Source: a bacterium
GTDB taxonomy: Bacteria; Patescibacteriota; Patescibacteriia; UBA9570
Assembly (NCBI GenBank): GCA_030698395.1
Contig: JAUYKW010000025.1
Location: 68,179-132,178 of the forward strand
Length of the DNA: 64,000 bases
Direction of reading: 5' to 3'
Shown: one piece after another, positions 36,840-63,510 of the stretch
Numbering within the stretch: position 1 is the first letter of the stretch
Layout: each line of letters begins with the position of its first letter
Made by a program: the position numbers and the translations under genes
The notes under the pieces: generated by a model
Seen by the model: the letters and a program-made list of their open reading frames with translations, nothing else
Database searches by the model: none
What the model was told of the DNA's origin: nothing

Positions 36840-37104
36840 TTGATAAGTTGTTTTTTAAGTGTGTACACAATGTTAATAAACCGAGGAAAACATTGTAGTA
36901 AGAACACTAACATCTTGTGGGTAAAAAAACATCAAAAAACACCTTTTTTAATTATCAACACCTTAACTACCGCGTTTTCCTTATCTTATTAACAAACAAA
37001 TTCATATACTAACTAATAAAAATGGCTTTAAAGTAACTTTCCCACATTTCCACAGCCCTTATTATTATTAATAAGTATATTTATAAATTTTTTATCCCCA
37101 TATT
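36840..37104. promoter_or_regulatory. candidate oriC (dnaA-dnaN intergenic, DnaA-box-like 9-mers plus AT-rich tract)
   Basis: Within one mismatch of TTATCCACA: TTATCAACA, TTATCCCCA, TGTGGGTAA (reverse orientation), plus TTTCCACAG; long AT-rich run. The dnaA upstream region 35300..35441 also has TTTTCCACA. Confidence 0.4.
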
Positions 37105-46592: not shown

Positions 46593-47987
46593 TTATTTTG
46601 TCTTTGTTGGATTAACTAAGAAGCCAGCAAGATCTCGTCTGCCAATTATTATTGGATGAGATAGTTTATTATCCATTGCAATGGCAACCTGGGTGCTGAT
46701 GTTCTTTTTTCCTAACACGAATGATAGTGAAACTTTAGGACGGATTGTATATTTGTCACCACTACGTACAGCAACTATATCAACTATATCTTCGTGTAAT
46801 CCTTTAATTGAATGTTGAAATGATTCTTCTACTTGGCGAGCATCAGATGCAGAGACTATGCTGGGTAAAACGATAGAATCAAGTGCAGTTAAGGCGTCTT
46901 GAAAACCAAGGCGACGTGCTAGGTCTTTAGAAATTGTAGTAGATGTTAAACCAGTATCAATCCGAACACGCATAGCTTGTTGTTTGTTATTACGGTCTGT
47001 AATTTCGATTGATTCGTATACACCAATAACTGCTTTATCTTCTTCGGTTTCGGTATCGTTACTAAATAAATCTTTGCATACTTTTACTCCTTTTACTACA
47101 CTGGAAATATTCAGGCCCGCTACCCTTTCTAATCTATCTCGGAGAGTTGTTTGATTTGCATTTTGAATTTCTAATCCAGGATGCGCATTTACTTCTAATA
47201 TTACTGGCCCTTGTTGTTTGTCTATCACTATGTCAACACCCGCATAACCAAGGCCGACGGCTCGTTGAGCTTCTACACTGATGCGTAGTATTTCATTCCA
47301 GTTATTAATGTGTAAACCACGGAGACTAGTATTGTAATCTGGATGTACTGTTAGTTCTCCTACGTGTTTGGATGCCGCATAAGTGGTGATGCCTGTCGTT
47401 AAATCTATACCTACGCCTATTCCTCCCATATGTAGATTGGCTTTCCCCGAGGATGATTTTGTTGGTAGGCGTAACATGGCCATTATTGGTACAGAGTTAA
47501 ATACAATTACCCGAATATCTGGAATGCCTTTATAACTTACATGTTTAAATTCTTCTGATAATTTTAAGCGTTCTTCAAAGTATGCTATATCCGGGATATT
47601 TGATATTGAATAATTACCATCTAATATATTACTAACGCGCATCATTAAATCGTCTTCTGTATAGAATTCGTTGCTCCCCCCAATCCATTGATTGTTTTTG
47701 TTTTTTCCATAAACAATAAGAATACCATTACCACCTAGACCAAAGTTTGGTTTTAATACAAAGCTTGGTGGGAGCGATGACCAATCAAATTCAAAGAGTT
47801 CACGACGATCATGAATTTCAGAAAATATTTTTGCTGTTGGCAGACCATGTTTTAATAGACGTTCTTTGGTTGCTAGTTTATTACGAGCAAGCTGAATAGA
47901 CGAACGTTTGTTATTCGGACGAATATAGCGCAAATTGCGAGCGTTCATACCAAGAACACGACTTGATTTAGCAAAGAATTCACTCAT
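46593..47987 (-). CDS. RimK-like ATP-grasp amidoligase (alpha-L-glutamate-ligase-related) fused to C-terminal retropepsin-like domain
   Basis: ATP-grasp core (VLKPNFGLGGNGILIV ... VNAHPGLEI) in first about 300 aa; C-terminal about 150 aa repeats the DTG (VRIDTGLTSTTIS) fold of the neighbouring gene. Confidence 0.7.
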   Translation of the reverse strand: MSEFFAKSSRVLGMNARNLRYIRPNNKRSSIQLARNKLATKERLLKHGLPTAKIFSEIHDRRELFEFDWSSLPPSFVLKPNFGLGGNGILIVYGKNKNNQWIGGSNEFYTEDDLMMRVSNILDGNYSISNIPDIAYFEERLKLSEEFKHVSYKGIPDIRVIVFNSVPIMAMLRLPTKSSSGKANLHMGGIGVGIDLTTGITTYAASKHVGELTVHPDYNTSLRGLHINNWNEILRISVEAQRAVGLGYAGVDIVIDKQQGPVILEVNAHPGLEIQNANQTTLRDRLERVAGLNISSVVKGVKVCKDLFSNDTETEEDKAVIGVYESIEITDRNNKQQAMRVRIDTGLTSTTISKDLARRLGFQDALTALDSIVLPSIVSASDARQVEESFQHSIKGLHEDIVDIVAVRSGDKYTIRPKVSLSFVLGKKNISTQVAIAMDNKLSHPIIIGRRDLAGFLVNPTKTK

Positions 47988-47989
47988 TG

Positions 47990-49612
47990 TTATGCGGAGG
48001 GTTTTTTAAATAATTTACGGAAACGAATATATTCAAATAAACGCAAACCAGTGAAGCGACCAAATACAAAATTAAGAACCAGAGTTAGCAATACAGCCTC
48101 AGGGTAAGCCATAATAAATGTTTCAAATACACCCCAAGTAACAATGCCGTAACTAATTATAGCCAAGACTAACGTTTCTATGGTCAATACAATTGCGGTA
48201 CGGTTGCCTTGTTCAATTTGAGCTTCTACAAATTTTTCAGTAAGAATAATCATGACTAAAATAGGAAAGATAGAAATAGTTACAATTGAGCTTCTACCTA
48301 AATAACTAGCAGCAATAAACATGATAAATATCGACAAACTAACGATTGTTAAAACTATGGCCATGCGGGGCATGTACAAAATACGTAAATATCGAACTAA
48401 TAATCTAGATACAGTTGCTACTACTAGTAATAGCAAGAATAGAACTAAACCATATTTTAATTGAGTAACTACAAAAGTTAGAGCGATAATAGATGGAACG
48501 TAGATACCAAAAGCTTTTACACCAACTATTTGTCTACCAAAGGCAATGATTGTAGCTACAATCGGTAGGATGAGTAAAAGGAATAAAGTATCTGGACTAA
48601 CACCCTGATTGATCAGATAGTTAATACCATAAGAGAAAAAATTAAACGGAGATATTGTATCTAACACTCGTTGGCTATGACGTCCAATAATTTGATAATC
48701 GATATTATTGGATTGCAAACTTGAAGTTAGAGTATCAGCTGAAGGATTGGCAAGGATGATTTCTAATGCTGGAGTAGTTGTAAGTAGTACATATTGTGGC
48801 GTGATGATGTTAAAAGTACTTTGAGCTAACCTAGCTAAAGCAGACCCTGCGGTTTTATCATCAATTCTTACGATGGCTTTCTGGCTGAAGCTAGCACTAG
48901 ATGTAGCAACATCTCCATTTGAAGAGGTAAATATTCTACCAACTTCAGATAGTGCATTTAGGCCAATATTTTTTCCGGTCCAGGTAATGATTAAATTGGC
49001 TTGAGCCAAATCTTCCTCTGACGTTACTAATTGTTCCGCAATATTTCTAGAGAGAGCATAGTTTGGATCGTTTTCATTTGTTGGTTTTACCGAAACCAAA
49101 AGAGTGCCGTGTCTTTGGGCATAGTCTTTAAGTTTTTTTAAATCATCCTTTGATACAGAATTGTCGGTAATAAGTAATACAACGTCTTTTGCGATAGAAA
49201 CTAACAATGTGTCTTTGGATACTTTTTCGCCATCAGTAACTGTTATTCTTGCTTTATACGTTCCTGGTTCAGCATAAATATGCGATGCGTCTATACCAAC
49301 AAATTGTTCCCCATCCCCAAAATCCCAAGTGTAGATTAATTTTTCATCAGTTGGACCAGTAGAACCAGATGCATCAAATACAATATTGCGTCCTACCACA
49401 CCATTTTTATCTTTGCCCGCAGATGCAGCCAATGGCGTTGCTTCGATTATTTCTTCCTCTTTCGCATTGTTCCCATCTTGAGAAGATTCAGTATTAGCAA
49501 CAACGACCTCGTCAGTAACCGGATTTTCAATAACAGTCTCTTGTGCAGAGACGTTTGGCCAAGGTGACAAGCTAAAAAGGAGAACAATAATTATCGTTAG
49601 TTGTTTTTTCAT
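47990..49612 (-). CDS. signal peptide + PKD domain + C-terminal multi-TM (7TM-like) membrane protein
   Basis: Cleavable signal MKKQLTIIIVLLFSLSPWPNVSA; PKD motif FDASGS...YTWDFGDGE...HIYAEPGTYKARITVTDG; C-terminal about 200 aa with 6-7 hydrophobic helices. Confidence 0.55.
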   Translation of the reverse strand: MKKQLTIIIVLLFSLSPWPNVSAQETVIENPVTDEVVVANTESSQDGNNAKEEEIIEATPLAASAGKDKNGVVGRNIVFDASGSTGPTDEKLIYTWDFGDGEQFVGIDASHIYAEPGTYKARITVTDGEKVSKDTLLVSIAKDVVLLITDNSVSKDDLKKLKDYAQRHGTLLVSVKPTNENDPNYALSRNIAEQLVTSEEDLAQANLIITWTGKNIGLNALSEVGRIFTSSNGDVATSSASFSQKAIVRIDDKTAGSALARLAQSTFNIITPQYVLLTTTPALEIILANPSADTLTSSLQSNNIDYQIIGRHSQRVLDTISPFNFFSYGINYLINQGVSPDTLFLLLILPIVATIIAFGRQIVGVKAFGIYVPSIIALTFVVTQLKYGLVLFLLLLVVATVSRLLVRYLRILYMPRMAIVLTIVSLSIFIMFIAASYLGRSSIVTISIFPILVMIILTEKFVEAQIEQGNRTAIVLTIETLVLAIISYGIVTWGVFETFIMAYPEAVLLTLVLNFVFGRFTGLRLFEYIRFRKLFKKPSA

Positions 49613-50890: not shown

Positions 50891-51934
50891 ATGATAAATA
50901 CAGATAAAATCAAACAATTAGATAGCCAAAACATGCTTGGAAGTATTGATCAGCTTGCAAGTCAGGTAAAACATGCTTGGGATGCAGTGAAACAAATAGA
51001 AGTTCCTGAACACTACAAAGAATGTAAGAATATTGTGTTATTTGGTATGGGCGGATCAGCATTGGGCATGGATATTATTAAAGCAGTTTATTCAAACCAA
51101 ATTACTGTACCAATTCACATTCAAAATGATTATGCAGTACCTAAATTTGTAGATAAGAATTCTTTGGTAATTCTTTCTAGTTACTCCGGTACAACTGAGG
51201 AGGTTGTGGCAACTGCATCAGAAGTAGCAGAATTAACTGATCGTATTCTAGTGGTCACAACCGGTGGTAAGTTGAGTGAATTAATGGAAGAAAAGAAGTA
51301 TCCTGGATACTTAATAGAGCCGACGTTTAATCCATGTGGTCAGCCACGTATTGCTGTAGGATATGCAACAATTGGATTGCTAGGATTATTGAATAACGTT
51401 GGTTTGGTAAAATTATCAGATCAAAACATTGATGATGTTGTACATTTTTTAGAAGGCAATCGAGAATTATTGCGGGATGATGCTATGCGAGTAGCTAGTG
51501 ATACAGAGCAATATATTCCAGTATATATTGGTAGTGAATTCTTGGCTGGAAACGTTCATGTAATGTCTAATCAGACAAATGAAAATGGTAAGCACTTTTC
51601 AACCTGGAAATTAATACCAGAGTTGAATCATCACCTCTTGGAGGGATTGGAAAATCCTGCGGGCAATACGGATAAAATTAGATTTATTTTTTTAGAGTCA
51701 AATTTGTATCATGTGCGTAATCAGAAACGCTATGAAGTTACGAAGCAGGTGTTAGAAGAATTAAAAATGACATATTCAGTATTTGTACCTACTGCAAATA
51801 ATGAATTATTACAATCGTTTGAAACTTTGCAATGGGGAAGTTATTTAAGCTTTTATTTATCTGTACTAAATAACATAGATCCATCACCGATCCCTTGGGT
51901 GGATTATTTTAAGGATGCACTTAAAAAGCCGTAA
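50891..51934 (+). CDS. bifunctional phosphoglucose/phosphomannose isomerase (SIS domain, archaeal type)
   Basis: SIS motif VLFGMGGSALG and overall about 350-aa PGI/PMI layout. Confidence 0.7.
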   Translation: MINTDKIKQLDSQNMLGSIDQLASQVKHAWDAVKQIEVPEHYKECKNIVLFGMGGSALGMDIIKAVYSNQITVPIHIQNDYAVPKFVDKNSLVILSSYSGTTEEVVATASEVAELTDRILVVTTGGKLSELMEEKKYPGYLIEPTFNPCGQPRIAVGYATIGLLGLLNNVGLVKLSDQNIDDVVHFLEGNRELLRDDAMRVASDTEQYIPVYIGSEFLAGNVHVMSNQTNENGKHFSTWKLIPELNHHLLEGLENPAGNTDKIRFIFLESNLYHVRNQKRYEVTKQVLEELKMTYSVFVPTANNELLQSFETLQWGSYLSFYLSVLNNIDPSPIPWVDYFKDALKKP

Positions 51935-53453
51935 AGGAGAAATTGCCTTCTATACGGCAGTAGCTTTATTTAGCGGGATTTACTTTAGTATTTTGCAATG
52001 GCCAAGTAGCTTTGCTGATCCTGATTCTTTTTATCACGCAAGGATAATTCAGCAGATTTCTGAGCATGGATTACTCTATGCATTTCCTTGGCTCCAAGCT
52101 ACAACGCTTGCAGAAAAGTTTACAGATCATCATTTGTTGTATCATTTATTCTTGGTTCCATTCACGACCGTGCTAGATCCTGCAACTGCAGTCAAAGCCG
52201 GGCAGGTGGTGTTACTAGTAATTTTATCATTAGTTCTAGTATCTATATTACGGCGTTGGAAGTTGTCTTATAGTTGGGCCGCTTTGTTCATACTCTATAC
52301 AATTTCACCTTTTGTAGTACGGATAAATTTAGTTAAAGCAACAGCTTTGGCGATGATTATTTTGTTAGGTATTTTTATTTTATTGTTAGAAAGAAAATAT
52401 GGTTTAGTGGCACTATTGACTGTGGCTTATACCTGGGCGCATGGTGGATTTATATTGGCATGGTTAGTTGCTATGATGATTTGGCTGGCAGACATTGTTA
52501 CACAATCTATAAAACGAAAAAGAATTTATTTTGAAGATCCACGGGGTGTGATAATGGTTACGTTGGGCATTATAGCGGGCATAATAATAAATCCATATTT
52601 TCCACAAAACTTATTTTTTTTCTGGGAACAAGTTGTTCAGATCGGTTTCATTAATTATCAAGAAGTTATAGAGGTAGGAGGTGAATGGTATCCATTTGCG
52701 CTCGATCAGTTAACGGGGTTACTTAGTATTTTGCTTATTGCCGTATTGTTAGCCTGTATGATTTTTGTGTGGCAAAGAAAGAAATACTTTACAGACATCA
52801 AAGCAGTTAGCTTATTGTTTATAGCGATAATGTTCTTTTTTGCAACTTTACGCTCACGGCGTAATGTAGAGTATTTGGTTCCATTTTTGTGGTTGTGGAC
52901 ATGTTATTTGGTTTTGCCCTATCTAGAATCAGGAGCTTGGAAGGTTCATCTTAAAAAGCTAAAGCAACAATTAGGAAAGGTGTTTACAGTATTAGCTGTT
53001 TATTTACTAATTGTTATTCCGCTGGCATCAATTAAAAATGTATTTGAAGCACAAGAAGATTTAAGTGAGGGCATTGATTTGTCCACTTATCAGGCAGCTG
53101 GGGAGTATATGAAAGAAAACATCCCTGTGAATACAAATATATTTCACACACAATGGGATGAGTTTCCTATGTTGTATTATCAGAATTCGAATAATTATTA
53201 TTTAGTAGGACTCGATGCAACATTTATGTATTTAGATGACGCTGACAAATATCGGCGCTGGCGAGAGATATCCGAAGGCAATGTAAAAGAGCATTTATCT
53301 ACAATAATAAATGAAGAGTTCAATTCATCATATGTTTTTATAGGGCGTTCTACAAAAAGTTCTCAGTTGCTTGATGCATATTTGTTTCGTGATCCAGAAG
53401 TAATCCTTGAATACGAAGATGAATATACGAGGATATATAATCTAGGCACATGA
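51915..53453 (+). CDS. GT-C-fold-like polytopic membrane glycosyltransferase candidate, paralog 1
   Basis: About 11 TM helices; first extracytoplasmic loop motif ADPDSFYHARI (acidic-aromatic loop reminiscent of STT3 FDPYFNYR / ArnT-PMT DE loop); C-terminal soluble domain. Confidence 0.45.
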   Translation: MHLKSRKGEIAFYTAVALFSGIYFSILQWPSSFADPDSFYHARIIQQISEHGLLYAFPWLQATTLAEKFTDHHLLYHLFLVPFTTVLDPATAVKAGQVVLLVILSLVLVSILRRWKLSYSWAALFILYTISPFVVRINLVKATALAMIILLGIFILLLERKYGLVALLTVAYTWAHGGFILAWLVAMMIWLADIVTQSIKRKRIYFEDPRGVIMVTLGIIAGIIINPYFPQNLFFFWEQVVQIGFINYQEVIEVGGEWYPFALDQLTGLLSILLIAVLLACMIFVWQRKKYFTDIKAVSLLFIAIMFFFATLRSRRNVEYLVPFLWLWTCYLVLPYLESGAWKVHLKKLKQQLGKVFTVLAVYLLIVIPLASIKNVFEAQEDLSEGIDLSTYQAAGEYMKENIPVNTNIFHTQWDEFPMLYYQNSNNYYLVGLDATFMYLDDADKYRRWREISEGNVKEHLSTIINEEFNSSYVFIGRSTKSSQLLDAYLFRDPEVILEYEDEYTRIYNLGT

Positions 53454-54973
53454 AACGATTATTGTCGAAAGATCATTTAATATTATACTTACTCACTAGT
53501 AGTATATTTGTTTTATTTTTATTTAATCAGTATTCATCCGTGTTAGCAGATCCGGATTCCTTTTATCATATGAAAATGGCACAGTTGTTGTTGGATCAAG
53601 GAATAATTAAGGATTTTATATGGTTACCATACACTACTTTAAGTGAACATTTTGTTAATCAGCATTTATTGTTTCATGTATTATTAGCACCATTTGTTAC
53701 GTGGGGAAATCCATTTTTGGGTGTAAAATTATTTACGGCGTTATTAGGTACAACTGCAATCATTAGTATTGCGTTATTGCTACGAAGTTTAAAGTTGCGT
53801 TGGTGGCTTTTGGCAACAGTTATTTTAACGCTTACTGTTACCTTTACATTTCGATTGAACTTAGTAAAAGCATCGCCACTGTCGATGATATTGTTGTGCG
53901 TGGTAATTTGGTGTTTGATAAAAAAAAGAAATTGGTTATTAGCGGTTACGAGCATGGTTTTTGTGTGGAGCTATGGGGGCTTTTTTCTTGTTATCCCAGT
54001 TGTTTGTATTTGGATAATTGCTAATGCAAAAAAAGCTTTATGGAAAAAACCTGGTATATTTAAAAACCTAATAATTTTAATAAGACCACTATTGGCTGCT
54101 TGTGGGGGTATAATAATTGGATTACTTTTTAACCCATACTTTCCTGATAATTTATATTTTTATTGGGAGCAGGTAGTACAAATTGGAATTATAAATTACG
54201 GAGATAGTATCGGCGTGGGCGGTGAGTGGTATTCATATTATCCTCACGAATTATTTATTGGTTCTTTATGGCTTACTTTTATATTTGGCGGAGCATTGTT
54301 TTTTAAAATCATAAATCGGTTAAAGTGGAAAGAGTTGGATTGGTTTGTACTTGGTTTGTCTATTTTTGGAATGTTGTTAACATTTAAATCACGGCGCTAT
54401 GTGGAGTATTTTGGTCCGTTTACAATTCTTGCTGCGGCTACTTGGTTGAATGAGTTAAAAACTGATTCATTAAAACGTTTGATAAAAAGCGATATGCCAT
54501 TGAGAAAGATGGTAATGTGCTTACTACTAACAGCTTTTTTGGTTATTAGTGTTGTTCCGATAATTCTCCATGATAGCATTACTAACGCCAGTGATGTACG
54601 TGAGGGTTATTCGATTACACAATATAAGGATGCTAGTGAATGGTTGAGCATAAATGCAGTTCCGGGTAGCAATGTGATGCATAGTGATTGGGATGATTTT
54701 CCCATGTTGTTTTACTACAATAGCAATGTTAATTATATGGCCGGCTTAGATCCAACATTTATGTATCGTTATAATGAAGATCTGTATTGGATGTGGGTAG
54801 AGATTACCCTTGGTACTTATAAAGGAGATTTAGGAGATGCCCTATCTAAGCTAAATGTAAAGTACATTTTTATTGAAAGTAATCATACGGAAATGTATAA
54901 CTTATTTAATGAATATAAAAAAGTAAAACTTATTTATACTGATGAAGAAGCTGACATTTTTGTAGTACTGTAG
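53450..54973 (+). CDS. GT-C-fold-like polytopic membrane glycosyltransferase candidate, paralog 2
   Basis: Same architecture and motif (ADPDSFYHMKM; shared NPYFP, WEQVVQIG, VGGEWY, DDFPMLFY); tandem paralog of 51915..53453. Confidence 0.45.
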   Translation: MKRLLSKDHLILYLLTSSIFVLFLFNQYSSVLADPDSFYHMKMAQLLLDQGIIKDFIWLPYTTLSEHFVNQHLLFHVLLAPFVTWGNPFLGVKLFTALLGTTAIISIALLLRSLKLRWWLLATVILTLTVTFTFRLNLVKASPLSMILLCVVIWCLIKKRNWLLAVTSMVFVWSYGGFFLVIPVVCIWIIANAKKALWKKPGIFKNLIILIRPLLAACGGIIIGLLFNPYFPDNLYFYWEQVVQIGIINYGDSIGVGGEWYSYYPHELFIGSLWLTFIFGGALFFKIINRLKWKELDWFVLGLSIFGMLLTFKSRRYVEYFGPFTILAAATWLNELKTDSLKRLIKSDMPLRKMVMCLLLTAFLVISVVPIILHDSITNASDVREGYSITQYKDASEWLSINAVPGSNVMHSDWDDFPMLFYYNSNVNYMAGLDPTFMYRYNEDLYWMWVEITLGTYKGDLGDALSKLNVKYIFIESNHTEMYNLFNEYKKVKLIYTDEEADIFVVL

Positions 54974-55039
54974 GGAAAAAGCTAAAAACAAAACAGACCT
55001 CGATTAAGAGATCTGTTTGAATATGTAAGTATTTGTTCT

Positions 55040-55414
55040 TTACGCTCCTGTGAAATTCAACAAGTTGTTGATTGCATAGGTTGAAAGTCCCCAAGCTGCT
55101 AAGATGATCACTAAACCAATTAAGGCAGCGATTAAAAGCTTTTTGGCGCTTTCTACTTTTTCTTCATTACCACCAGCAGTCATCCATCGGAATCCACCGA
55201 TAAGAATCATGATAACGGCAACTAGCGCTAGTAGGCCTAATACCCAATTTACTACGCTTACGGCTAGATCCACTGGACTGGAATTACCCAATACTAGTGA
55301 GTTACCAATACCAGATGTATCTATAGTATCTACAGTTGCTGCACTAGCAATGTTTGCTGTTAGCAATGTAGCAGATCCTACTGCCAAATAACCTAGTTTT
55401 TTAAATTTATTCAT
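55040..55414 (-). CDS. VirB2/TrbC-pilin-like small secreted membrane protein, paralog 1 of 10
   Basis: Signal peptide (ATLLTANIASAAT), variable segment, then conserved hairpin LALVAVIMILIGGFRWMTAGGNEEKVESAKKLLIAALIGLVIILAAWG. Confidence 0.55.
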   Translation of the reverse strand: MNKFKKLGYLAVGSATLLTANIASAATVDTIDTSGIGNSLVLGNSSPVDLAVSVVNWVLGLLALVAVIMILIGGFRWMTAGGNEEKVESAKKLLIAALIGLVIILAAWGLSTYAINNLLNFTGA

Positions 55415-55544
55415 AGCGAATTGCGTTAAGAATATTGTTAGTTAGATATTTTTTTAATTCTCCTATTTATGGATGCAATTATAGCACATCTAGAATTGAT
55501 TGTAAATGTTTTATAGACAGGTAGATAGAGGAAAGAAAAAGTTA

Positions 55545-55574
55545 TTGACTTCAGAGGGTAAAATGTGGTATGCT
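55545..55574 (+). promoter_or_regulatory. candidate sigma70-like promoter for the plus-strand pilin-like array
   Basis: TTGACT - 18 nt - TGgTATGCT (extended -10), upstream of paralog 2. Confidence 0.3.
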
Positions 55575-55582
55575 ATTTATCA

Positions 55583-55993
55583 ATGCAGACTACTAAATAT
55601 AATTTATCGTTTGCAACATTTGCAAGAACATTGGCAATTGCTTTTTTAATTACATTCCCATTTGCAGTTAGTGCATATACTTTAGGATTTGATCCTGCAG
55701 TTGGTGACACGGAGCAACCATTACAGAAAGCAAGTCAATTAGGAACTGCAGATCCAACTCAAATTATCTTTACTATTATTAATACTAGTTTGATATTTCT
55801 AGGATCCATAACCTTAATTATGGTAATTGTAGCAGGCTTTATGTGGTTGTTAGCAGGTGGATCTGAGGAAAAGATAAAGAAAGCAAAAGACTTACTTAAA
55901 GGAGCGACAATTGGTTTGGTTATTGTATTGTCATCATTTGGATTGGCGAATTATGTGTTTACAGCTCTCCAAAGCGCAATTATTAGTAATTAG
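55583..55993 (+). CDS. VirB2/TrbC-pilin-like small secreted membrane protein, paralog 2
   Basis: Start at MQTTKYNL; signal peptide ...FPFAVSA; LGTADPTQ then IMVIVAGFMWLLAGGSEEKIKKAKDLLKGATIGLVIVLSSFG. Confidence 0.55.
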   Translation: MQTTKYNLSFATFARTLAIAFLITFPFAVSAYTLGFDPAVGDTEQPLQKASQLGTADPTQIIFTIINTSLIFLGSITLIMVIVAGFMWLLAGGSEEKIKKAKDLLKGATIGLVIVLSSFGLANYVFTALQSAIISN

Positions 55994-56433
55994 TGAGTTT
56001 AATGACACATCAAACAAAGAGTATAAAAATTTTTTTCATCAGCGCTTTAGTGATAGCTGTTGGATTATTCGTGGCTTTCCCTCCTGAATTGGTAGGTGCA
56101 GCTAACATATCTATAAATCCAATTGATGCTAGCGGTGAGTGGGGTAATTTAACCGATACCGGCTTAGGAACAACCGATCCCGTTGTTGTGGCATCTCAAA
56201 TAATCAACATACTTTTGCGAGTATTAGGACTGTTTTCATTGATAGTTATGCTATATGGTGGATGGTTATGGATTTGGGCAAGGGGAAATGAAGAAACTAT
56301 TAGTAAGGCTAAGGATATTTTAGTAGGTACGTTTATTGGCCTAATTATCATTTTGGCTTCATATGGGATTTTGCAGTGGGTATTTTATTATCTAGCAGAC
56401 ATTACAAATGCAGGTGGCGGAGCAAGCGCTTAA
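55993..56433 (+). CDS. VirB2/TrbC-pilin-like small secreted membrane protein, paralog 3
   Basis: LGTTDPVV ... LYGGWLWIWARGNEETISKAKDILVGTFIGLIIILASYG. Confidence 0.55.
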   Translation: MSLMTHQTKSIKIFFISALVIAVGLFVAFPPELVGAANISINPIDASGEWGNLTDTGLGTTDPVVVASQIINILLRVLGLFSLIVMLYGGWLWIWARGNEETISKAKDILVGTFIGLIIILASYGILQWVFYYLADITNAGGGASA

Positions 56434-56923
56434 AAAAAATAGTTTTAAGTTTTTATTAGTAGCATGTTTAATACTGATATGTTTGCCTTTGGTAGGTATT
56501 GCAGTAGATAGTGAATCACCAGCTGAACAGGAAGATCCAACAAAAGGATATCTGCAGTTTGATCCAGCAGATAATACGAAAGTAAAAGAAGGTGGCCCCG
56601 ATGTAGCGCTTACTACAGTAAATCGACTGACATTTTTATCTGGAGGCAATGATCCATTAAGTATTTCTTTGAATATTATTAATGTGTCTCTTACCTTTTT
56701 AGGTACTTTATCAATGATAATGATTTTGTATGGGGGTGTAGTATGGTTTACATCAGGTGATAATGAGGAGAAGCTGGGCAAGGCTAAACAAATTATTATA
56801 GGAGCAATTATTGGATTGGTATTAACATTGGGTGCTTATTCAATAAGTACTTTAGTGTTTGATCAGATAAGTACTGCAACACAGAGACAAGACGATTCTT
56901 TATCGGAAGCACTTAATGATTAG
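56408..56923 (+). CDS. VirB2/TrbC-pilin-like small secreted membrane protein, paralog 4
   Basis: GGNDPLSI ... LYGGVVWFTSGDNEEKLGKAKQIIIGAIIGLVLTLGAYS. Confidence 0.55.
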   Translation: MQVAEQALKKNSFKFLLVACLILICLPLVGIAVDSESPAEQEDPTKGYLQFDPADNTKVKEGGPDVALTTVNRLTFLSGGNDPLSISLNIINVSLTFLGTLSMIMILYGGVVWFTSGDNEEKLGKAKQIIIGAIIGLVLTLGAYSISTLVFDQISTATQRQDDSLSEALND

Positions 56924-57419
56924 TAATATCAAGGATAGAATTTTAATATCAGGGTGGGTGATGGTAATTTTTTTAACTTTATTCATGCCATTTTTGGTAT
57001 TTGCCGCACCTACAACCGAGGATACTGCGCCTGTCTATACAAAGGACGCACTACCATTTGATCCAACGCAGGCGGCTCAGATAGAGTTAAAGTATCACGC
57101 AAAGGAACAATGGGAGGCCGGAAGACTTAGTACGATATGGCAACTTGATCTTGGTAGCGCTGATCCATTGTCTATAACGCTTAACATAATTAATATTGTA
57201 CTTACTTTCCTAGCTTCTGGATTTTTGATACTCTTAATGTACGCTGGAGTGTTATGGATGATAGCTCGTGGTAATCAGGAGCAAATTGATAAATCAAAAA
57301 AAATTATTCAACGAGCAGTTATTGGTTTAATCATTGTACTGGGAGCGCTTAGTATATCATCAACTATCTTCTATTTTATCGAACCTAGCTTTCAGGAGCC
57401 GGAAGCAGAAACACCATAA
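56916..57419 (+). CDS. VirB2/TrbC-pilin-like small secreted membrane protein, paralog 5
   Basis: LGSADPLSI ... MYAGVLWMIARGNQEQIDKSKKIIQRAVIGLIIVLGALS. Confidence 0.55.
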   Translation: MISNIKDRILISGWVMVIFLTLFMPFLVFAAPTTEDTAPVYTKDALPFDPTQAAQIELKYHAKEQWEAGRLSTIWQLDLGSADPLSITLNIINIVLTFLASGFLILLMYAGVLWMIARGNQEQIDKSKKIIQRAVIGLIIVLGALSISSTIFYFIEPSFQEPEAETP

Positions 57420-57428
57420 ACAAAAAAT

Positions 57429-57866
57429 ATGTATAAAAAACTCACTAGTTTATTTCTCATCATAGCATTAAGCATTACAGTGTTTTCTCTGTCTACAGCA
57501 CCTGCGTATGCGTTAAATTTTTTTCCAACATCAGATAATACTGGTCAATTAAATAATACAGCAGACACCGAAATAGCCTTAGGAGGAGTAGCCGCAACTC
57601 AAGTAGCGCTAGACTTAGTTAACTTGGCTTTATCATTACTAGTTACTCTATGTTTAATACTATTATTATATGGTGGTTTTTTATGGATCTGGGCACGTGG
57701 TAATGCTGAACAAGTACAGAAAGCAAAAGATATTATTCAGGGTACAGCTATTGGCATAGTTATCGTATTGTCAGCTTTAGGAATTACACAATTTGTATTC
57801 ATTCAGGTAGCTGATATTACAGGAGCGACCGTTGATACCGCTGAAGAACAAGCATCAACTCCTTGA
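57429..57866 (+). CDS. VirB2/TrbC-pilin-like small secreted membrane protein, paralog 6
   Basis: Signal peptide ...APAYA; LYGGFLWIWARGNAEQVQKAKDIIQGTAIGIVIVLSALG. Confidence 0.55.
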   Translation: MYKKLTSLFLIIALSITVFSLSTAPAYALNFFPTSDNTGQLNNTADTEIALGGVAATQVALDLVNLALSLLVTLCLILLLYGGFLWIWARGNAEQVQKAKDIIQGTAIGIVIVLSALGITQFVFIQVADITGATVDTAEEQASTP

Positions 57867-57893
57867 TGATTTTTAGAATGATATAAATCATCA

Positions 57894-58316
57894 GTGAAAA
57901 CAAGAATTATGAACAAGAATATTATGAATAAAGTTAAAAACATTGGTTTATCGCTGGTTATTGCGGGAGTATGTGTTGTGCCTGCAATGGCGATGGCTTA
58001 TACTCCTCAAGCTGTAGTATTTGATCCAGGTAGTAATGTAGAACGAAACACTGGTTTAGGTAACGCAAGCCCTACAGATGTAGCTGCTGGTATAATTAAT
58101 TGGGTGCTGGGGTTATTAATGATTATCTCCGTAATCTTGATTATCTACGGAGGTTTTATTTGGATGTTTTCACGTGGAAATGAAGAACAGGTAACTAAAG
58201 CGAAGGATATTTTAACTGGAGCTTTAATTGGAGCGGTGATTATTTTAGCGTCTTATGGAGCATCGTATTATGTATTTGAAAATTTACTAAATGCAACTGT
58301 AAATGGAGTTGCTTAA
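57894..58316 (+). CDS. VirB2/TrbC-pilin-like small secreted membrane protein, paralog 7
   Basis: LGNASPTDV ... IYGGFIWMFSRGNEEQVTKAKDILTGALIGAVIILASYG. Confidence 0.55.
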   Translation: MKTRIMNKNIMNKVKNIGLSLVIAGVCVVPAMAMAYTPQAVVFDPGSNVERNTGLGNASPTDVAAGIINWVLGLLMIISVILIIYGGFIWMFSRGNEEQVTKAKDILTGALIGAVIILASYGASYYVFENLLNATVNGVA

Positions 58317-58734
58317 GGGACGAAACATTTTTTTAATTCTAGGTACTATAGTGCTTTTATTTGCATTTTCTATACCGGCTAATGCTCAACCCAGAAAGAC
58401 ACTTAATGAGTATGACCAAGTCATACAAAATGAAACTCAGTTAGGGGGAATTGAGGTAAGTGAAGCGGGAGCGCTTAATTCTGCAGTAGTATTAGGTGGC
58501 CCACTTGATATGGCATCACAAATAATTAATTTATTACTTGGTTTGTTAGGAACAATAAGTGTTATTTTTATGTTTTATGCGGGATGGTTATGGATGATTG
58601 CTCGTGGTAATCAGGACCAAGTAAAAAAAGCCAAAGATATTCTAACCGGAACCGTCATTGGATTGTTTTTTATTCTAGCGTCTTATACGCTATTAAACTT
58701 TGTATTTAGAAGCTTGGTTACGATAACTAACTAA
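58303..58734 (+). CDS. VirB2/TrbC-pilin-like small secreted membrane protein, paralog 8
   Basis: Signal ...SIPANA; FYAGWLWMIARGNQDQVKKAKDILTGTVIGLFFILASYT. Confidence 0.55.
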   Translation: MELLKGRNIFLILGTIVLLFAFSIPANAQPRKTLNEYDQVIQNETQLGGIEVSEAGALNSAVVLGGPLDMASQIINLLLGLLGTISVIFMFYAGWLWMIARGNQDQVKKAKDILTGTVIGLFFILASYTLLNFVFRSLVTITN

Positions 58735-58741
58735 TCTTGCC

Positions 58742-59092
58742 TTATCCAGTAGCAGCAGATTGAAATACAGCAAAGGTGTATTGTAAGATTGCGTAACTAC
58801 TTAAAATTATAGCCAAACCAATGGCTGCCCACAATAATGTGCTACGGCCTTTTTTGATTTTCTCTTCGTTTCCACCAGAAAACAATACTTTAAAACCACC
58901 CCAAATGAACATTAACAAGGTAGCTGCACCTACAATACCTAATAATGCTTGAATAATTGCTCCAATAATAAGAATTGGTTCTGCATCTTCGGCACCGGCA
59001 AATGGTGGAGCGAGACTTTCGGTGGCGGCCGCTATGCTAGGGAGGCTTAGAAAAAGAGCTGTGGCGGCAACTGTTTTGATTTTAGTAAACAT
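58742..59092 (-). CDS. VirB2/TrbC-pilin-like small secreted membrane protein, paralog 9
   Basis: Start set at MFTKIKTVAATALFLSLPSIAAA; IWGGFKVLFSGGNEEKIKKGRSTLLWAAIGLAIILSSYA. Confidence 0.5.
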   Translation of the reverse strand: MFTKIKTVAATALFLSLPSIAAATESLAPPFAGAEDAEPILIIGAIIQALLGIVGAATLLMFIWGGFKVLFSGGNEEKIKKGRSTLLWAAIGLAIILSSYAILQYTFAVFQSAATG

Positions 59093-59112
59093 AGAGTAGT
59101 AACTAATAATAT

Positions 59113-59970
59113 TTAATATTTTACAACGCATGTTTTGCCAGTTTCTGTACAACTGTAATCTAGTTTCAAATAGAGAGATTCATTTGCTTTATAAGCCGAT
59201 GTAGCAACACACTCTGCTTTACGCCCTTCAAGGCTAGATATGTTTAGATTGTTTATTAGAGTACAATCACTAGAGCAATAGCATTGTTTTTTATCCATTC
59301 CAGCATCACTTTCAGCAGTAGCTAGATCCGGTGCGTCTGTTGTGCATTTATTATCATCACCTTCAGGATTTAGTTTACGGTAACAAATACAATTAGATCC
59401 TTTTTCTTTGCAATCACCAACGCCACCACAATAGTTACCAGCTGGCTGGCCAGCACAAGATTTACCAACTGGTAAACAGGCTGGAGGTTCCCACCAGGCT
59501 GAATCAAAGATTGTTGCTTTATTGCTTCCTTGTTCACCACTAAATATATTGCCTGATTCGGCAGTACTGTAATAAGCAGTGCGGACAATGAAGTTTACGG
59601 CAAACCAAGCGAAAAATACGATAGCTAACCCAGTAACAGTTCCTATTAGGATCTTTTTTCCAGTTTCAACTCGCTGTTCATTTCCAGAGGAAAATATTAA
59701 GAAGAACCCACCAACAATAAACATGATCAATGAGAGCGAGCTAACGGAAGCTGCTATTAAATTAGCTGCATTGGTAAATATTAAAGTGACGTCACAGATA
59801 TTACAACCAATAGAACTTTGCCAACATTTTGATGGCACTATAGAAATACCAAAACCAGCAGTGGCAGGGTCTTCTGCTTGAGTAGCAAATGGAATTGCTA
59901 AGAACGCCAGTAATAAAACAGCCGTTTTTATGCTACGGACAATATTGTTGCGGAGGCTATTATTAATCAT
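59113..59970 (-). CDS. pilin-like family paralog 10 with about 130-aa Cys-rich C-terminal extension
   Basis: First about 150 aa have family core (IVGGFFLIFSSGNEQRVETGKKILIGTVTGLAIVFFAWF); C-terminal region has 13 Cys in CxxC/CxC-like spacing (NCICYRK, QCYCSSDC). Confidence 0.55.
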   Translation of the reverse strand: MINNSLRNNIVRSIKTAVLLLAFLAIPFATQAEDPATAGFGISIVPSKCWQSSIGCNICDVTLIFTNAANLIAASVSSLSLIMFIVGGFFLIFSSGNEQRVETGKKILIGTVTGLAIVFFAWFAVNFIVRTAYYSTAESGNIFSGEQGSNKATIFDSAWWEPPACLPVGKSCAGQPAGNYCGGVGDCKEKGSNCICYRKLNPEGDDNKCTTDAPDLATAESDAGMDKKQCYCSSDCTLINNLNISSLEGRKAECVATSAYKANESLYLKLDYSCTETGKTCVVKY

Positions 59971-61342
59971 AAGTAAGTGCTACTTTACTAGCGGTATTTT
60001 TTACAGCAGTGTTTACATCTAATCGTCCTTCATTGATGATTGTTATCATGTCGGCAAACTGATCTTCAACTTCTTTTGGTTGTGATCCTGCATACCAGCT
60101 TTGAGCAGTTAGGGATTGATCGGCGAATACAGAAAGTACGTAATCTTCTTTTTGTTCCTCTAAAAGAGTTTTGAGAGCAGATGGTTTTTTAGTGGCAGTA
60201 AGGTATTTTTTAACTTTTGCATTTTCAGTAGTTATAGCCTCTATTAATGCCCAGGCCTCATCAGTTACTTTACTATTAATTGATACGGTTTCTAGCCAGT
60301 AATTAGCGTAGTTAATATTGTTGTTAATATTAACTTGTGGCATAGGTGCTAAATCAAAATTTAAATTTGGAGCACGATTGTTTATTTGTTTTAGATCGTA
60401 GTGATAGCCAAAGTAGAAAGCTGTATCGCCATCAATGAAGGATTCCAGTGCATCTGATTGGTCAGCATTCCAGCTGTACCATTCAACATCTGGATTAGCA
60501 AAACTGGTATAAAATTCTACTGCTTGGTTACCAGGATTGTATCCGCGTCTTTCTTTTAGATCTGTTTGAAAAGTAACATTGGAGCCACTAGTCATAACAG
60601 CACCATTTTGCAACATTAACAGTGATATGATGTCAAAAGAGCGAGGAATGTTGTTGCTAGTTCCTAATGCAGCTCCAGACTGGATGATGTTATTATCAAT
60701 ATCAACTAAGGTTAGCCGGGGAACTTGTTCGACAAACTGATCCCATGTTTCTGGTGGGAGGGCAATTTTTGCTTGGCTTAGCATGTCTTTGTTGTAGTAT
60801 AAGACCATTGTGTCCATAGAAAGAGGAAGCGCAAATATCTTTTCTGTTGCCTTATCTTTGCTAGTTGCTTTGTGCACCATGACTACGTCATCTGAGACAA
60901 CTTGTGGGAATGAACTGCCTAGTTGTTGAACGGAAATAGTGCTGAGGGTTTGGGGAGTTACTACTAATTCTTTTTGGCCTAGACTTTCTTTTGTTTCAAC
61001 TGATGTTATTGCAATAGTAGCAGGCATTGGTTCAATGAGATCTTCAAATTTACCAAGATGAGAGTTTGGTATTGAAAAAATATCTGGACCTTCACCTTGA
61101 GCCCAAGCAGAAATTAATTCGTCTTCATAGTTTTGGATGTTTAGCTGTCTGTATTCTACTTGAATATACGGATATTTTACGGCAAATGCATCAAAGGCAC
61201 CTCTAAGATCTGCATCGCTATTTACAACAGACCAATATTTTAAAACAATGGTACTGGGAGAGGTATCTTTACTTTTGCATATGGCTCCACTAAAAATTAA
61301 TAGTGAAAGCAATAGTCCAACGCCAAAAATACTTTTTTTCAT
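59963..61342 (-). CDS. extracellular solute-binding protein (ABC transporter family 1, sugar-type), lipoprotein-like signal
   Basis: N-terminal signal/Cys (LLIFSGAIC), about 440-aa SBP_bac_1-like layout; no permease/ATPase partner in window. Confidence 0.65.
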   Translation of the reverse strand: MKKSIFGVGLLLSLLIFSGAICKSKDTSPSTIVLKYWSVVNSDADLRGAFDAFAVKYPYIQVEYRQLNIQNYEDELISAWAQGEGPDIFSIPNSHLGKFEDLIEPMPATIAITSVETKESLGQKELVVTPQTLSTISVQQLGSSFPQVVSDDVVMVHKATSKDKATEKIFALPLSMDTMVLYYNKDMLSQAKIALPPETWDQFVEQVPRLTLVDIDNNIIQSGAALGTSNNIPRSFDIISLLMLQNGAVMTSGSNVTFQTDLKERRGYNPGNQAVEFYTSFANPDVEWYSWNADQSDALESFIDGDTAFYFGYHYDLKQINNRAPNLNFDLAPMPQVNINNNINYANYWLETVSINSKVTDEAWALIEAITTENAKVKKYLTATKKPSALKTLLEEQKEDYVLSVFADQSLTAQSWYAGSQPKEVEDQFADMITIINEGRLDVNTAVKNTASKVALTYD

Positions 61343-61401
61343 GCAAAAATTATACCACTTTTTTAAAGATAATACAATTTTATTTTACCCTAGCTTATTA
61401 T

Positions 61402-62637
61402 CTAAGTGATGTTGTATACAGACTGTAAGAGGTTGGAAAATTGAGATGATATTTCCTGATTAAATGAAGGATCTTGATAGATTAGTAAATCAACGTATCG
61501 TTTTACAGGCCAGAAGCGAGTTTGTCTAGGGATATTGATGTATTTAGATGGAAGATGAACATCACAAGCAAAGTGTTCTAGTTGAAATACATTATCTTTA
61601 TCAATGGTTTTTTCAGCTAAAATTAACGGTAGGTCATCATCAAAATTCATCAAGTCTTTCAGTGTAAACCAAAAAGAGTTGGTGTTGAACCATTTTATCG
61701 AGTCTTGATCGAAATTTGGCGGAAATTTCATTTGCTCTACAATAATAAGTTCTTCATCAACGAAACATGGAGCTCCACCTTGATCGCCGAGTTCTTTAGT
61801 TGCCAATTCCACAGTACGGCCATATTTGTGGTTTACATGGTAGCCTAATAAAGCAGGATCAATAGTTGCGCCAAGATTATCAATGTTTGCAAAAAATAGA
61901 TATTTTACATTTGGAATGTGTGCAGAACGTAAATAATCTTGTAGTAAGTAAATAAAATCTCCATGACCACATGGTGCAAATGATAAGGATCCATCAGTTG
62001 TAACAAATAAATCAATATTTTTTAGGTTATCAACTTTTGTAAATCTGGGCATTGTTGGTTGTTGGACAACAAAATGAAATCTTTCTGGGTCTAGATCTGG
62101 ATATTTCTTATATAGAGCATTTAAATGCTTTCTAGTTTGTTCATCTGTAATGAAGCTATTCATTATCACAACTTGGGGATGAACATCTAGTTTTGATTGT
62201 TTGGTAATTTCTAGTAGATTACGAATTTTTAATTCTAAATAACTCATGTCATCAATTACTGGTGCTACTCCCTTTGGCAGATTAGTAATTTCTGGAGTAA
62301 TTTTATTCAGTGCAGTTTGATAGCGAATTTGTTCTTCTGGAGTTACTTTAGATTCATCAAAATATCGCGTGGCTGCGCCTCCGTTTAACCAAAAAACTAA
62401 GAGTTCATCATCTTTGAGAGCGTCATTTCCCGCGTTGATCATCTTTTGAGTGTCTAGATTAGAATACTCATTGATATCGGAATTGGTTGGTGGTCTTAAA
62501 CGGTTTTTATCTATCACAAAAGAGCTGTGATCTAATTCTCCAGACTGTAATTTCACATGCAGTGATTTAATATGATCTGGATCGATACCTTGAACTTTTA
62601 GTTTGTTACGAATTTCATCGCGGTCTATGTGTAACAT
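61402..62637 (-). CDS. UDPGP-family UTP--sugar-1-phosphate uridylyltransferase (eukaryotic/archaeal-type UGPase/UAP-like)
   Basis: Pyrophosphorylase loop VFWLNGGAATRYF (compare L-N-G-G-L-G-T), nucleotide-binding core, about 410 aa. Confidence 0.65.
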   Translation of the reverse strand: MLHIDRDEIRNKLKVQGIDPDHIKSLHVKLQSGELDHSSFVIDKNRLRPPTNSDINEYSNLDTQKMINAGNDALKDDELLVFWLNGGAATRYFDESKVTPEEQIRYQTALNKITPEITNLPKGVAPVIDDMSYLELKIRNLLEITKQSKLDVHPQVVIMNSFITDEQTRKHLNALYKKYPDLDPERFHFVVQQPTMPRFTKVDNLKNIDLFVTTDGSLSFAPCGHGDFIYLLQDYLRSAHIPNVKYLFFANIDNLGATIDPALLGYHVNHKYGRTVELATKELGDQGGAPCFVDEELIIVEQMKFPPNFDQDSIKWFNTNSFWFTLKDLMNFDDDLPLILAEKTIDKDNVFQLEHFACDVHLPSKYINIPRQTRFWPVKRYVDLLIYQDPSFNQEISSQFSNLLQSVYNIT

Positions 62638-62730
62638 ATCTAGAGTAATATAGCATTTATAGGGTCAAATTTCAAGGGGTTTGTTAAGAAATGTTTAATG
62701 TGAAAACTAATCTTGTGTTATGATACGGGT

Positions 62731-63510
62731 ATGCATAATATAAAAGAAATAGCGCAATTTACCCAGCAGTTAGCAACGGAAGCTGGTGAGTTGTTGTTAA
62801 AGGCATATCAAGAACAGAGTGGTGCAAACAATGCAAAACGCACTTCACCAAAAGAAATGAAATTAGTAGAAGATGCCACCATAGATGAGTGGTTGGTGCA
62901 GAAAATTCTTGAAACATATCCGACTCATTCAATTTTAGCAGAAGAAAGTGGGGAACATAAAAAAGGAACGGATGTTTTATGGATAATTGATCCGATTGAT
63001 GGGAGTGTTAATTTTAGTGTCCAGAATCCATTTGTTGCAATATCTTTAGCTGTGGTTATCAATGGAGAACTAACTATTGGTGTAATTGAAGCACCAGTAC
63101 TGCAAGAACAATTTATTGCCGTGAAGGGCAAAGGAGCGAAACTCAATAAAAAAGAAATTCATGTGTCACAAACAAAAAAGTTGAGCGATGCTTATCTGGT
63201 TAGTTGTGAAGGAGGCGCAAAAGACAGAACTGCAGTATTGGAGAGAATTATCGTGAATTATTTTGATCAGGTTAAAGATGTGCGCAAGTTGGGATCGGCA
63301 GCTTTGGAATGTGCATGGGTAGCAAGTGGGAGAGCTGATGCGTACGTTACAATTGAGATTGATCCGTGGGATGTAGCTGCTGGCATTTTAATAGTACAAG
63401 AAGCTGGTGGTAAAGTTACTACATTTGATAATGAAGCTTGGGAACCAAAAAGAGCAGACATAATCTGCTCTAATGGATTATTACATGATGAGTTGATGAG
63501 TCTTTTATAG
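62731..63510 (+). CDS. inositol monophosphatase family protein, paralog 2
   Basis: WIIDPIDGSVNF, EESG, WDVAAG motifs; listed ORF starts 18 nt earlier (62713). Confidence 0.8.
   Translation: MHNIKEIAQFTQQLATEAGELLLKAYQEQSGANNAKRTSPKEMKLVEDATIDEWLVQKILETYPTHSILAEESGEHKKGTDVLWIIDPIDGSVNFSVQNPFVAISLAVVINGELTIGVIEAPVLQEQFIAVKGKGAKLNKKEIHVSQTKKLSDAYLVSCEGGAKDRTAVLERIIVNYFDQVKDVRKLGSAALECAWVASGRADAYVTIEIDPWDVAAGILIVQEAGGKVTTFDNEAWEPKRADIICSNGLLHDELMSLL

Follow-up and report, generated by a model that had tools for sequence, protein, structure and literature searches.

Two paralogous membrane proteins with a predicted GT-C fold beside a VirB2-like pilin array in a Patescibacteria genome

What do two unannotated membrane proteins do beside an array of pilin genes in a member of the Patescibacteria? 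The pair in question, M1 and M2, is encoded by tandem genes next to ten pilin-like genes at positions 50891-62637 of a 64,000-nucleotide stretch of DNA (contig JAUYKW010000025.1 of assembly GCA_030698395.1, positions 68,179 to 132,178 of the forward strand; hereafter the window). The genome around the locus is low in GC (~35%), and the proteins of the window resemble those of metagenome-assembled Patescibacteria (candidate phyla radiation, CPR). Patescibacteria account for a large share of bacterial diversity, and most of them appear to be attached to other cells. Their surface is where their biology is decided, and VirB2-like pilin arrays are widespread among them and essential in the only case open to genetics. 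We propose, with somewhat better than even confidence, that M1 and M2, a pair of paralogs both kept after duplication, belong to a large family of GT-C glycosyltransferase fold, unannotated and apparently specific to Patescibacteria, for which oligosaccharyltransferase (OST) subunits are the closest solved structures, and that they form part of an extracytoplasmic glycosylation module. Thousands of clusters labelled 'hypothetical protein' that carry the fold of protein-glycosylating enzymes would point to an unrecognised envelope-modification system.

Sequence family and predicted fold of M1 and M2

M1 and M2 share 34% identity over 495 residues (BLASTP, E 3e-82), and in both of them the motif ADPDSFYH directly follows the first hydrophobic, transmembrane helix. 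M1 is 100% identical to an NCBI entry titled 'MAG: hypothetical protein', which is encoded on a contig of 141 kb. Neither protein matched Pfam, NCBIfam or the PDB sequences in phmmer and hidden Markov model (HMM) searches, nor did 74 members of their family (referred to here as M) give any consistent match to Pfam at E <= 10. A word-indexed search returned at least 495 relatives of M, every one labelled hypothetical and without Pfam domains, and an exhaustive profile search returned 4,106 clusters (50% identity) at E <= 1e-3, 1,773 of them at E <= 1e-30. When one genome per species was scanned, 364 species were found to carry an M relative; among the 80 carriers listed, nearly all those with a named lineage are Patescibacteria, and the remaining lineage labels look like placeholders or mis-binned genomes. 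The family is apparently confined to Patescibacteria, and its standing as a new, large and unannotated GT-C family is well supported.

An alignment of the 74 members contains 25 invariant columns, including D35-P-D37, Y40, H41, H77, K94, R136, K141, E257-W258, R316, E319, W414 and D434; as M2 is one of the aligned sequences, it keeps every family-invariant residue. Both D35 and D37 are invariant in the 74 sequences, and the DPD is also kept in a distant subfamily, M', which is tied to M by hhalign (96.6%) and by jackhmmer. The M' proteins are 535-549 residues long (e.g., those at L103:14847-16493, L134:14254-15864 and L146:14554-16176, numbered by locus) and display the motifs YLDPDxGWH, WVDHEWL, EW, KSRRH and FN.Y.WGGYLIW...FIDGRxPQ. 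In the 12 loci that hold tandem copies, the M1-type and M2-type sequences form separate, mirror-image clades, indicating that the duplication is old and that both copies were retained.

The AlphaFold2 model of M1, built from the 74-member alignment, has a predicted local distance difference test score (pLDDT) of 96.2 and a predicted template-modelling score (pTM) of 0.94. A Foldseek comparison of this model with the PDB gave 25 matches at E <= 1e-3, and all 25 are GT-C glycosyltransferases. Human STT3A (E 1.3e-9) and STT3B (template-modelling score, TM, 0.71) led the matches, followed by yeast Stt3, AglB, DPY19 and PglB, and then by ALG12, AftD and ArnT. The OST subunits STT3, AglB and PglB matched at E 1e-9 to 1e-6 and TM 0.55-0.71, at a sequence identity of 8-13%. 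Transporters appeared only at E ~1 and TM ~0.1, and a transporter assignment was rejected. The initial annotation, made from the sequence alone, had described the two proteins as GT-C-like, and the model bears this out: every significant PDB match is a GT-C enzyme, with STT3, AglB and PglB the closest solved structures. Judging by this predicted fold, M1 and M2 are very probably GT-C glycosyltransferases.

The C-terminal domain of M1, of ~130 residues and alpha/beta structure, begins with a beta-strand/Trp/helix element. When the last 141 residues were modelled alone (pLDDT 91.8), the top PDB match was the C-terminal domain of A. fulgidus AglB-S2 (3vu0), a weak match (E 0.014, probability 1.0, TM 0.55), followed by STT3A and yeast Stt3; the rest were low-probability Rossmann-like folds. 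The resemblance of the modelled domain is weak but independent of the membrane domain. M1 has ~11 membrane helices by a DSSP and hydropathy count, as compared with 13 in OST, and its alpha/beta domain follows them. By charge bias, the N-terminus lies inside, and three parts lie outside, as in a GT-C active site: the DPD loop, the loop of E257 and the C-terminal domain, which is acidic. The computed picture is of an outward-facing active site, formed by the loops DPD...YH and E257-W258 together with basic residues of the membrane part, and capped by a small OST-like domain.

The pilin array and conserved gene order

All ten pilin-like genes (55040-59970) match PF18895, T4SS_pilin, a family related to VirB2/TrbC whose members are small proteins that begin with a signal-like segment and end in a hairpin of two helices. 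Eight of the ten exceed the gathering score of 26.6 bits, pilins 3 and 5 falling below it by 1.8 and 0.2 bits, respectively, and pilin 1 also scores 40.1 bits against NCBIfam Mbov_0395, a pilin-like conjugal transfer family with a cut-off of 40. The initial description of these proteins as pilin-like was therefore right as to their being pilins, yet they are of the VirB2/TrbC type that belongs to type IV secretion systems (T4SS), and not type IV pilins or flagellins. Modification by OST- or PglL-type enzymes is known for the latter two.

The array is of a kind already described. A 2025 preprint reported 441 arrays of 2-11 divergent pilin genes each in CPR genomes, found one such array to be essential in Ca. 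Southlakia, and also noted T4SS genes near the replication origin (bioRxiv 10.1101/2025.01.22.634366). Neither the adjacency of GT-C genes nor the solute-binding protein (SBP) discussed below is treated there, and 'glycos' occurs once in its text. In the window, dnaA and dnaN (35442-38208) lie ~15 kb upstream of the locus, which places the pilin/GT-C region near the replication origin. No VirB4, VirB6 or VirD4 domain, nor any other T4SS gene, was found among the open reading frames (ORFs) scanned in the 64-kb window and among the genes called in the 8.6 kb beyond its 3' end.

To follow the gene order in relatives, two independent samples were used: 82 M-anchored loci from different species (after two duplicates were dropped) and 80 SBP-anchored metagenome loci (L085-L164). 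In the M-anchored sample, the gene for a phosphoglucose/phosphomannose isomerase (PGI/PMI; PGI for short) immediately precedes M in 56 of 77 loci, and ruvC-yebC stands farther upstream in 56 of 71. Within 10 kb on the downstream side of M, two or more pilin genes occur in 28 of 49 loci, as opposed to 1 of 65 upstream. The tandem M1-M2 arrangement is restricted to one clade of 12 loci, in which a pilin gene follows directly in all 11 that could be checked. Loci with a single M share the consensus order PGI > M > GT87-like > GT2 (one to three copies) > YfhO/PMT_2-like GT-C (one to three copies) > < DUF2079 < pilins < SBP. The same order returns in relatives whose M proteins are only 32-50% identical, so the arrangement is kept far beyond chance, and the check that had been suggested for the locus, conservation of its gene order in related genomes, came out positive.

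The SBP-anchored sample shows the association from the other side. A same-strand pilin gene follows the SBP in 67 of 69 loci, and an M-family gene is present in 14 of the 35 loci with at least 9 kb of flank. The M' genes of this sample stand in an operon with a GT2 gene, and often also a methyltransferase gene, placed inside the pilin array, and in 19 of 20 cases M' is divergent from the nearest pilin gene at a distance of 52-173 nt. M-family genes are thus found beside pilin arrays in three architectures (tandem M, single M, and M' inside the array), which argues for a functional tie between M and the pilins, short of proof. This recurrent placement is new and testable; in the literature, we found no account of OST-like or GT-C enzymes in Patescibacteria.

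No gene accompanies VirB2-like pilin arrays more constantly than that of an orphan SBP of sugar type, and at the locus itself no ABC permease or ATPase lies beside it. Pilin 10, the start of which overlaps the SBP stop, is a T4SS_pilin domain fused to a Cys-rich C-terminal extension of ~150 residues, and a protein of similar size (~275 residues in L001) occupies the same position beside the SBP in relatives such as L001. Amid the hypervariability of the pilin ectodomains (those of the window and of 219 homologs), two motifs recur: FDP directly downstream of the predicted signal peptide, and L-G-[TSN]-x-[DS]-P right before the first helix. These could be processing or modification sites.

A further protein, DUF2079, is encoded directly after the pilin array and on the same strand in 13 M-anchored loci (e.g., L019:14403-16415 and L054:11522-13483; it occurs in ~20 other single-M loci and also in L144 and L160), where SBP, pilins and DUF2079 are probably co-transcribed. 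The window has no DUF2079, and M2 occupies the place next to the array. We take DUF2079 to belong to Pfam's GT-C clan.

Donor, acceptor and rival readings

Enzymes of the GT-C class suggest how M1 and M2 might work. Their acidic loops, together with K94, R136, K141 and R316, would bind a polyprenyl-phosphate-linked sugar, which a GT2 enzyme, such as that encoded beside M in most relatives, would synthesise on the cytoplasmic side, and the sugar would then be passed to an acceptor outside the membrane. From the gene neighbourhood, the module to which they would belong may be tied to the SBP/VirB2-like pilin surface apparatus, with an acceptor that would be recognised other than by the classical N-x-S/T sequon. 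That this acceptor is a protein we hold to be slightly short of an even chance. Surface proteins would be the most likely acceptors, with the pilins as the leading, albeit tentative and rather doubtful, candidate.

The sugar-nucleotide genes that the initial annotation had counted as part of the locus are indeed present. PGI/PMI accompanies M more constantly than any other gene does, and the two are translationally coupled; the best NCBIfam matches of the isomerase are the models of bifunctional phosphoglucose/phosphomannose isomerases, below their cut-offs, and it is likely the organism's glycolytic isomerase, so that its presence may be simply glycolytic. It is only in the tandem-M clade that the UDPGP-type pyrophosphorylase goes with the SBP-pilin unit, and it was rejected as a member of the conserved module. 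Elsewhere, the window encodes a glycogen synthase, a GT4 and a nucleotidyltransferase. Two genes of the inositol-monophosphatase family are also present (3378-4187 and 62713-63510), the second directly after UDPGP, an order that recurs in L010 and L012.

Several observations weigh against M1 and M2 being an OST-related, pilin-linked glycosylation module. Neither a GT2 donor synthase nor a flippase is encoded in the window or in the 8.6 kb beyond its 3' end, and the window has no GtrA-like gene; the donor pathway for M1 and M2 is therefore not visible here, whereas a GT2 gene adjoins M in most single-M relatives and in the M' loci. M1 and M2 form their own transcription unit and are co-transcribed with no pilin. 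In 21 of the 35 SBP-pilin loci, no M lies within 10 kb, and many of the loci are related and come from one broad lineage, such that their counts are not independent events; for these two reasons the tie between M and the pilins is unproven. Moreover, the nearest sequence relatives of M are the adjoining YfhO/PTPS_related-like GT-C paralogs (hhalign, 96.3%), and the characterised members of that type modify teichoic acids, not proteins. DUF2079 is homologous to part of the M family (hhalign, 82.9%).

The sequence motifs of OST are likewise wanting. In OST, the WWDYG motif (its WWD) of the C-terminal domain binds the +2 Ser/Thr of the sequon, and the further motifs are a second D-x-D/E (D154/D156 in PglB) and, in external loop 5 (EL5), the catalytic Glu E319 and the donor-binding Arg R375 (PMC7226087). 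WWDYG is not conserved in M, the consensus of which is H-x-D-W-D-x-F-P (W414 invariant, D415 nearly so), and M' has Y-x-W-G-G-Y in its place. A second DxD/E is not evident, since the alignment holds no invariant acidic residue between H77 and E257, and the only nearby candidates for a second metal site are D71, H73 and H77. The DK/MI motif was not found in the M family, none of the 74 members gives a Pfam STT3 (PF02516) match even at E <= 10, and a search of the PDB sequences with the M HMM finds nothing. The remote-homology comparison that had been suggested for the pair gave an hhalign probability of 1.5-1.8% for M against both PglB (the C. jejuni sequence, checked against PDB entries 3aag and 5ogl) and an STT3 alignment (built from database matches to the yeast Stt3 sequence), which is not significant. 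Both runs align the segment from EL5 to transmembrane helix 11 (TM11) only, and in both of these non-significant alignments E257 is paired with the catalytic Glu of TIxE/SVSE, and R315/316 lands within one residue of the donor-binding Arg. The initial description as STT3-like stands as a structural resemblance and fails at the level of OST-defining motifs and profile comparisons.

The initial annotation had also put forward the sequons as a sign, if a weak one, that the pilins are modified. Taking as the ectodomain the stretch between signal peptide and first helix, we counted 47 N-x-S/T sequons in 219 pilins, where shuffled sequence gave 52 +/- 6.5, i.e., chance level; any ectodomain sequon at all was present in 42 of the 219. 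In single-M loci the sequons are depleted (17 observed, 27.9 expected), and the pilins of the window carry 6 where 3.3 are expected (P = 0.08). Arrays adjoining M or M' are richer in Asn and in sequons than arrays without M, an excess that is not significant per locus and tracks GC content. Enrichment of sequons was tested for in four ways and not found. Taken together, this null result and the degenerate WWDYG make classical N-glycosylation unlikely, while O-linked or non-canonical modification of the pilins is compatible with them.

How do these findings bear on other explanations of M1 and M2? It is a possible, if rather unlikely, alternative that the two proteins decorate or assemble an envelope glycopolymer (teichoic-acid-like, a lipoglycan or a peptidoglycan-linked glycan) in a system of GT2, flippase and GT-C, the pilins being mere neighbours in a conserved, origin-proximal stretch of a small genome. 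The homology of M to the YfhO/PTPS_related-like paralogs and to DUF2079 speaks for such a role. YfhO modifies lipoteichoic acid together with CsbB (PMC5836110, PMC8035078). M is, in most relatives, the first gene of a cluster of GT87-like, GT2, PMT_2/YfhO-like and sometimes MptA_B-like genes, as polymer loci do, and on this count the synthesis of a glycopolymer fits as well as protein glycosylation. The adjacency of PGI and M is also commoner than that of M and the pilins, and the region, ~15 kb from dnaA, is strongly syntenic, ruvC-yebC included. Yet among solved structures the peptide-modifying GT-C enzymes (STT3, AglB, DPY19 and PglB) outscore ArnT, AftD, Emb and ALG, the C-terminal domain resembles the peptide-binding core of OST, and three M-pilin arrangements, one of them with M'-GT2 inside the arrays, are poorly explained by inertia alone. 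If M1 and M2 did act on a glycopolymer, an undescribed cell-wall polymer of CPR bacteria would be indicated.

At the other end, M1 and M2 might be true N-oligosaccharyltransferases of the STT3/AglB/PglB kind, transferring a preassembled glycan en bloc to the Asn of pilin N-x-S/T sequons. OST subunits are the top structural match of both the whole protein and its C-terminal domain, and the weak profile alignments bring E257 onto the catalytic Glu and R316 onto the Arg that binds the donor; nevertheless, with WWDYG not conserved, the DxD/E and DK/MI motifs not found, no member matching Pfam STT3, and ectodomain sequons at or below chance and present in so few pilins, we consider this very improbable. 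More improbable still is that the pair are no glycosyltransferases at all, but transporters or structural membrane proteins. The want of any sequence-based annotation would agree with this, but every significant fold match is GT-C and transporters score at background (E ~1), an invariant acidic motif stands directly after the first transmembrane helix as in GT-C enzymes, and the gene neighbours of M encode GT2 and GT-C proteins.

We therefore retain the reading of M1 and M2 as GT-C enzymes of an extracytoplasmic glycosylation module, and a bolder version of it can be formulated, which we regard as speculative and on the whole unlikely. The VirB2-like pilins used for host contact would have glycosyltransferases of their own in M, M' and perhaps DUF2079; derived from an OST, these enzymes would have lost its N-x-S/T reader and would instead read an ectodomain motif (FDP and G-[TS]-x-D-P being candidates), with paralog pairs and hypervariable arrays giving rise to diverse surface glycoforms. 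If true, glycosylation of a conjugative-type pilus would be without precedent, and CPR bacteria would have their first OST-like system for glycosylating proteins. Should the enzymes act on pilins, glycosylation would be added to the biology of conjugative-type pili, and a very small OST-like scaffold (~510 residues) would be of interest both to glycoengineering and to work on how N-glycosylation evolved.

Layout of the locus and comparison with known systems

Every member of the gene list first drawn up for the locus was recovered at its coordinates (Table 1). The reading frames of PGI/PMI, M1 and M2 overlap (by 20 nt between the 3' end of PGI and the start of M1, and by 4 nt between the M1 stop and the M2 start), and these three genes therefore form one operon. 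M2 and pilin 1 are convergent, and the 66-nt gap between them contains the terminator-like hairpin. Pilin 1 is transcribed alone, towards M2, and pilins 2-8 lie on the opposite strand. The remaining genes make up a minus-strand unit, UDPGP-SBP-pilin 10-pilin 9, of which UDPGP is probably the first gene, and within which SBP overlaps pilin 10 and pilin 10 overlaps pilin 9. The best promoter-like site of the region (11/12 plus TG; 55506-55478, minus strand) lies ahead of pilin 1, and another (10/12 plus TG; 62675-62647, minus strand) ahead of UDPGP. Promoter- and terminator-like consensus matches are in no excess over shuffled sequence in this region, and single sites are suggestive at most.

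Table 1. Genes and other features of the locus, in window coordinates
Feature	Position	Strand	Size	Evidence
PGI/PMI-type sugar-phosphate isomerase	50891..51934	+	347 aa	Pfam bact-PGI_C E 5e-27, plus SIS
M1, polytopic, unannotated Patescibacteria family, predicted GT-C fold	51915..53453	+	512 aa	AlphaFold2 and Foldseek
M2, tandem paralog of M1	53450..54973	+	507 aa	BLASTP
Terminator-like hairpin, 11-bp stem then T run	54991..55018	-		Consensus scan, pattern match only
Pilin 1, VirB2/TrbC-like	55040..55414	-	124 aa	PF18895 E 1.2e-15, 57.8 bits
Pilin 2	55565..55993	+	142 aa	PF18895 E 1.2e-6, 28.9 bits
Pilin 3	55993..56433	+	146 aa	PF18895 E 2.3e-5, 24.8 bits; aligns with other pilins in array HMM
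Pilin 4	56408..56923	+	171 aa	PF18895 E 6e-8; weak TrbC match
Pilin 5	56916..57419	+	167 aa	PF18895 E 7.4e-6, 26.4 bits
Pilin 6	57429..57866	+	145 aa	PF18895 E 3.3e-9
Pilin 7	57894..58316	+	140 aa	PF18895 E 4.1e-9
Pilin 8	58303..58734	+	143 aa	PF18895 E 1.1e-7
Pilin 9	58742..59152	-	136 aa (longest ORF); 116 aa as called in public assembly L165	PF18895 E 2.4e-11
Pilin 10	59113..59970	-	285 aa	PF18895 E 2.2e-6
Orphan sugar-type SBP, lipoprotein-like signal peptide	59963..61342	-	459 aa	SBP_bac_8/SBP_bac_1 E ~1e-20
UDPGP-type UDP-sugar pyrophosphorylase	61402..62637	-	411 aa	PF01704 E 1.4e-40

Two other parts of the window stood out. At 14100-15750, a sharply bounded island of ~1.65 kb has a GC content of 60-67% in a genome of 35% GC and holds a single ORF, for a class I/II aminotransferase of 535 residues (14117-15724, plus strand). 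Ribosomal RNA was rejected as its content, Rfam finding only five tRNAs in the window, and the island has the look of DNA that was either acquired recently and horizontally from an organism of high GC or joined in by chimeric assembly. On the minus strand, 42610-49612 is a conserved block with genes for an APH-type kinase, the glycogen synthase GlgA, a GT4, a RimB-like Zn protease, a 'sugar-transfer associated' ATP-grasp protein and a PKD and 7TM-transglutaminase-associated membrane protein; in the closest relatives, this block also lies upstream of ruvC-yebC.

Among known systems, the three-component YfhO/GtrC systems, composed of a GT2 (CsbB/GtrB), a GtrA-type flippase and a GT-C enzyme, resemble the M loci in that a GT2 gene and GT-C paralogs stand beside M in most relatives, in the homology of M to neighbouring paralogs that weakly match Pfam YfhO and PTPS_related, and in a monoderm envelope with an extracytoplasmic active site. 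They differ in that no M member matches Pfam YfhO and that the window contains neither flippase nor GT2. We know of no teichoic acids in these bacteria, whereas it is teichoic acids that the characterised YfhO enzymes decorate (PMC5836110).

The pilin reading rests on a functional analogy. TfpW, of P. aeruginosa group IV strains, is a GT-C enzyme whose gene adjoins pilin genes and which acts on the pilin on the outer side of the membrane (bioRxiv 10.1101/2020.04.19.049825), archaeal AglB acts on pilins and archaellins (PMC5131992), and a streptococcal pair of GT2 and GT-C carries out protein O-glycosylation (PMC12041528). By analogy with TfpW and AglB, a GT-C gene next to pilin genes might serve the pilins. 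The substrates of these two enzymes, however, are type IV pilins or archaellins, while those proposed here are two-helix pilins of the VirB2/TrbC type. We know of no reported glycosylation of pilins of this type.

DPY19 (GT98) is the second-best structural class for M1 (E 1.4e-7, TM 0.64). It is a eukaryotic C-mannosyltransferase, i.e., a peptide-modifying GT-C enzyme that uses a polyprenyl-monophosphate sugar, and a donor of this type would fit the PMI and GT2 context of M. In contrast to M, it has no small alpha/beta C-terminal domain of OST type, and its identity to M1 is 8-9%. Enzymes of the STT3/AglB/PglB class (GT66, PF02516) share with M1 an outward acidic motif directly after the first transmembrane helix, and the C-terminal domain of M1 resembles theirs in the beta-strand/Trp/helix element at its opening. 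M also has a conserved external-loop Glu and, just after it, a conserved Arg, which the weak profile alignments put where OST has its EL5 Glu and donor-binding Arg. M is smaller, at ~510 residues as compared with 590-870 in OST, and falls ~200 residues below PglB. As for the array itself, its ten tandem and highly divergent PF18895 genes fit the range described for the VirB2-like arrays of CPR bacteria, and among the things that set it apart from that description is its constant partner, the orphan SBP.

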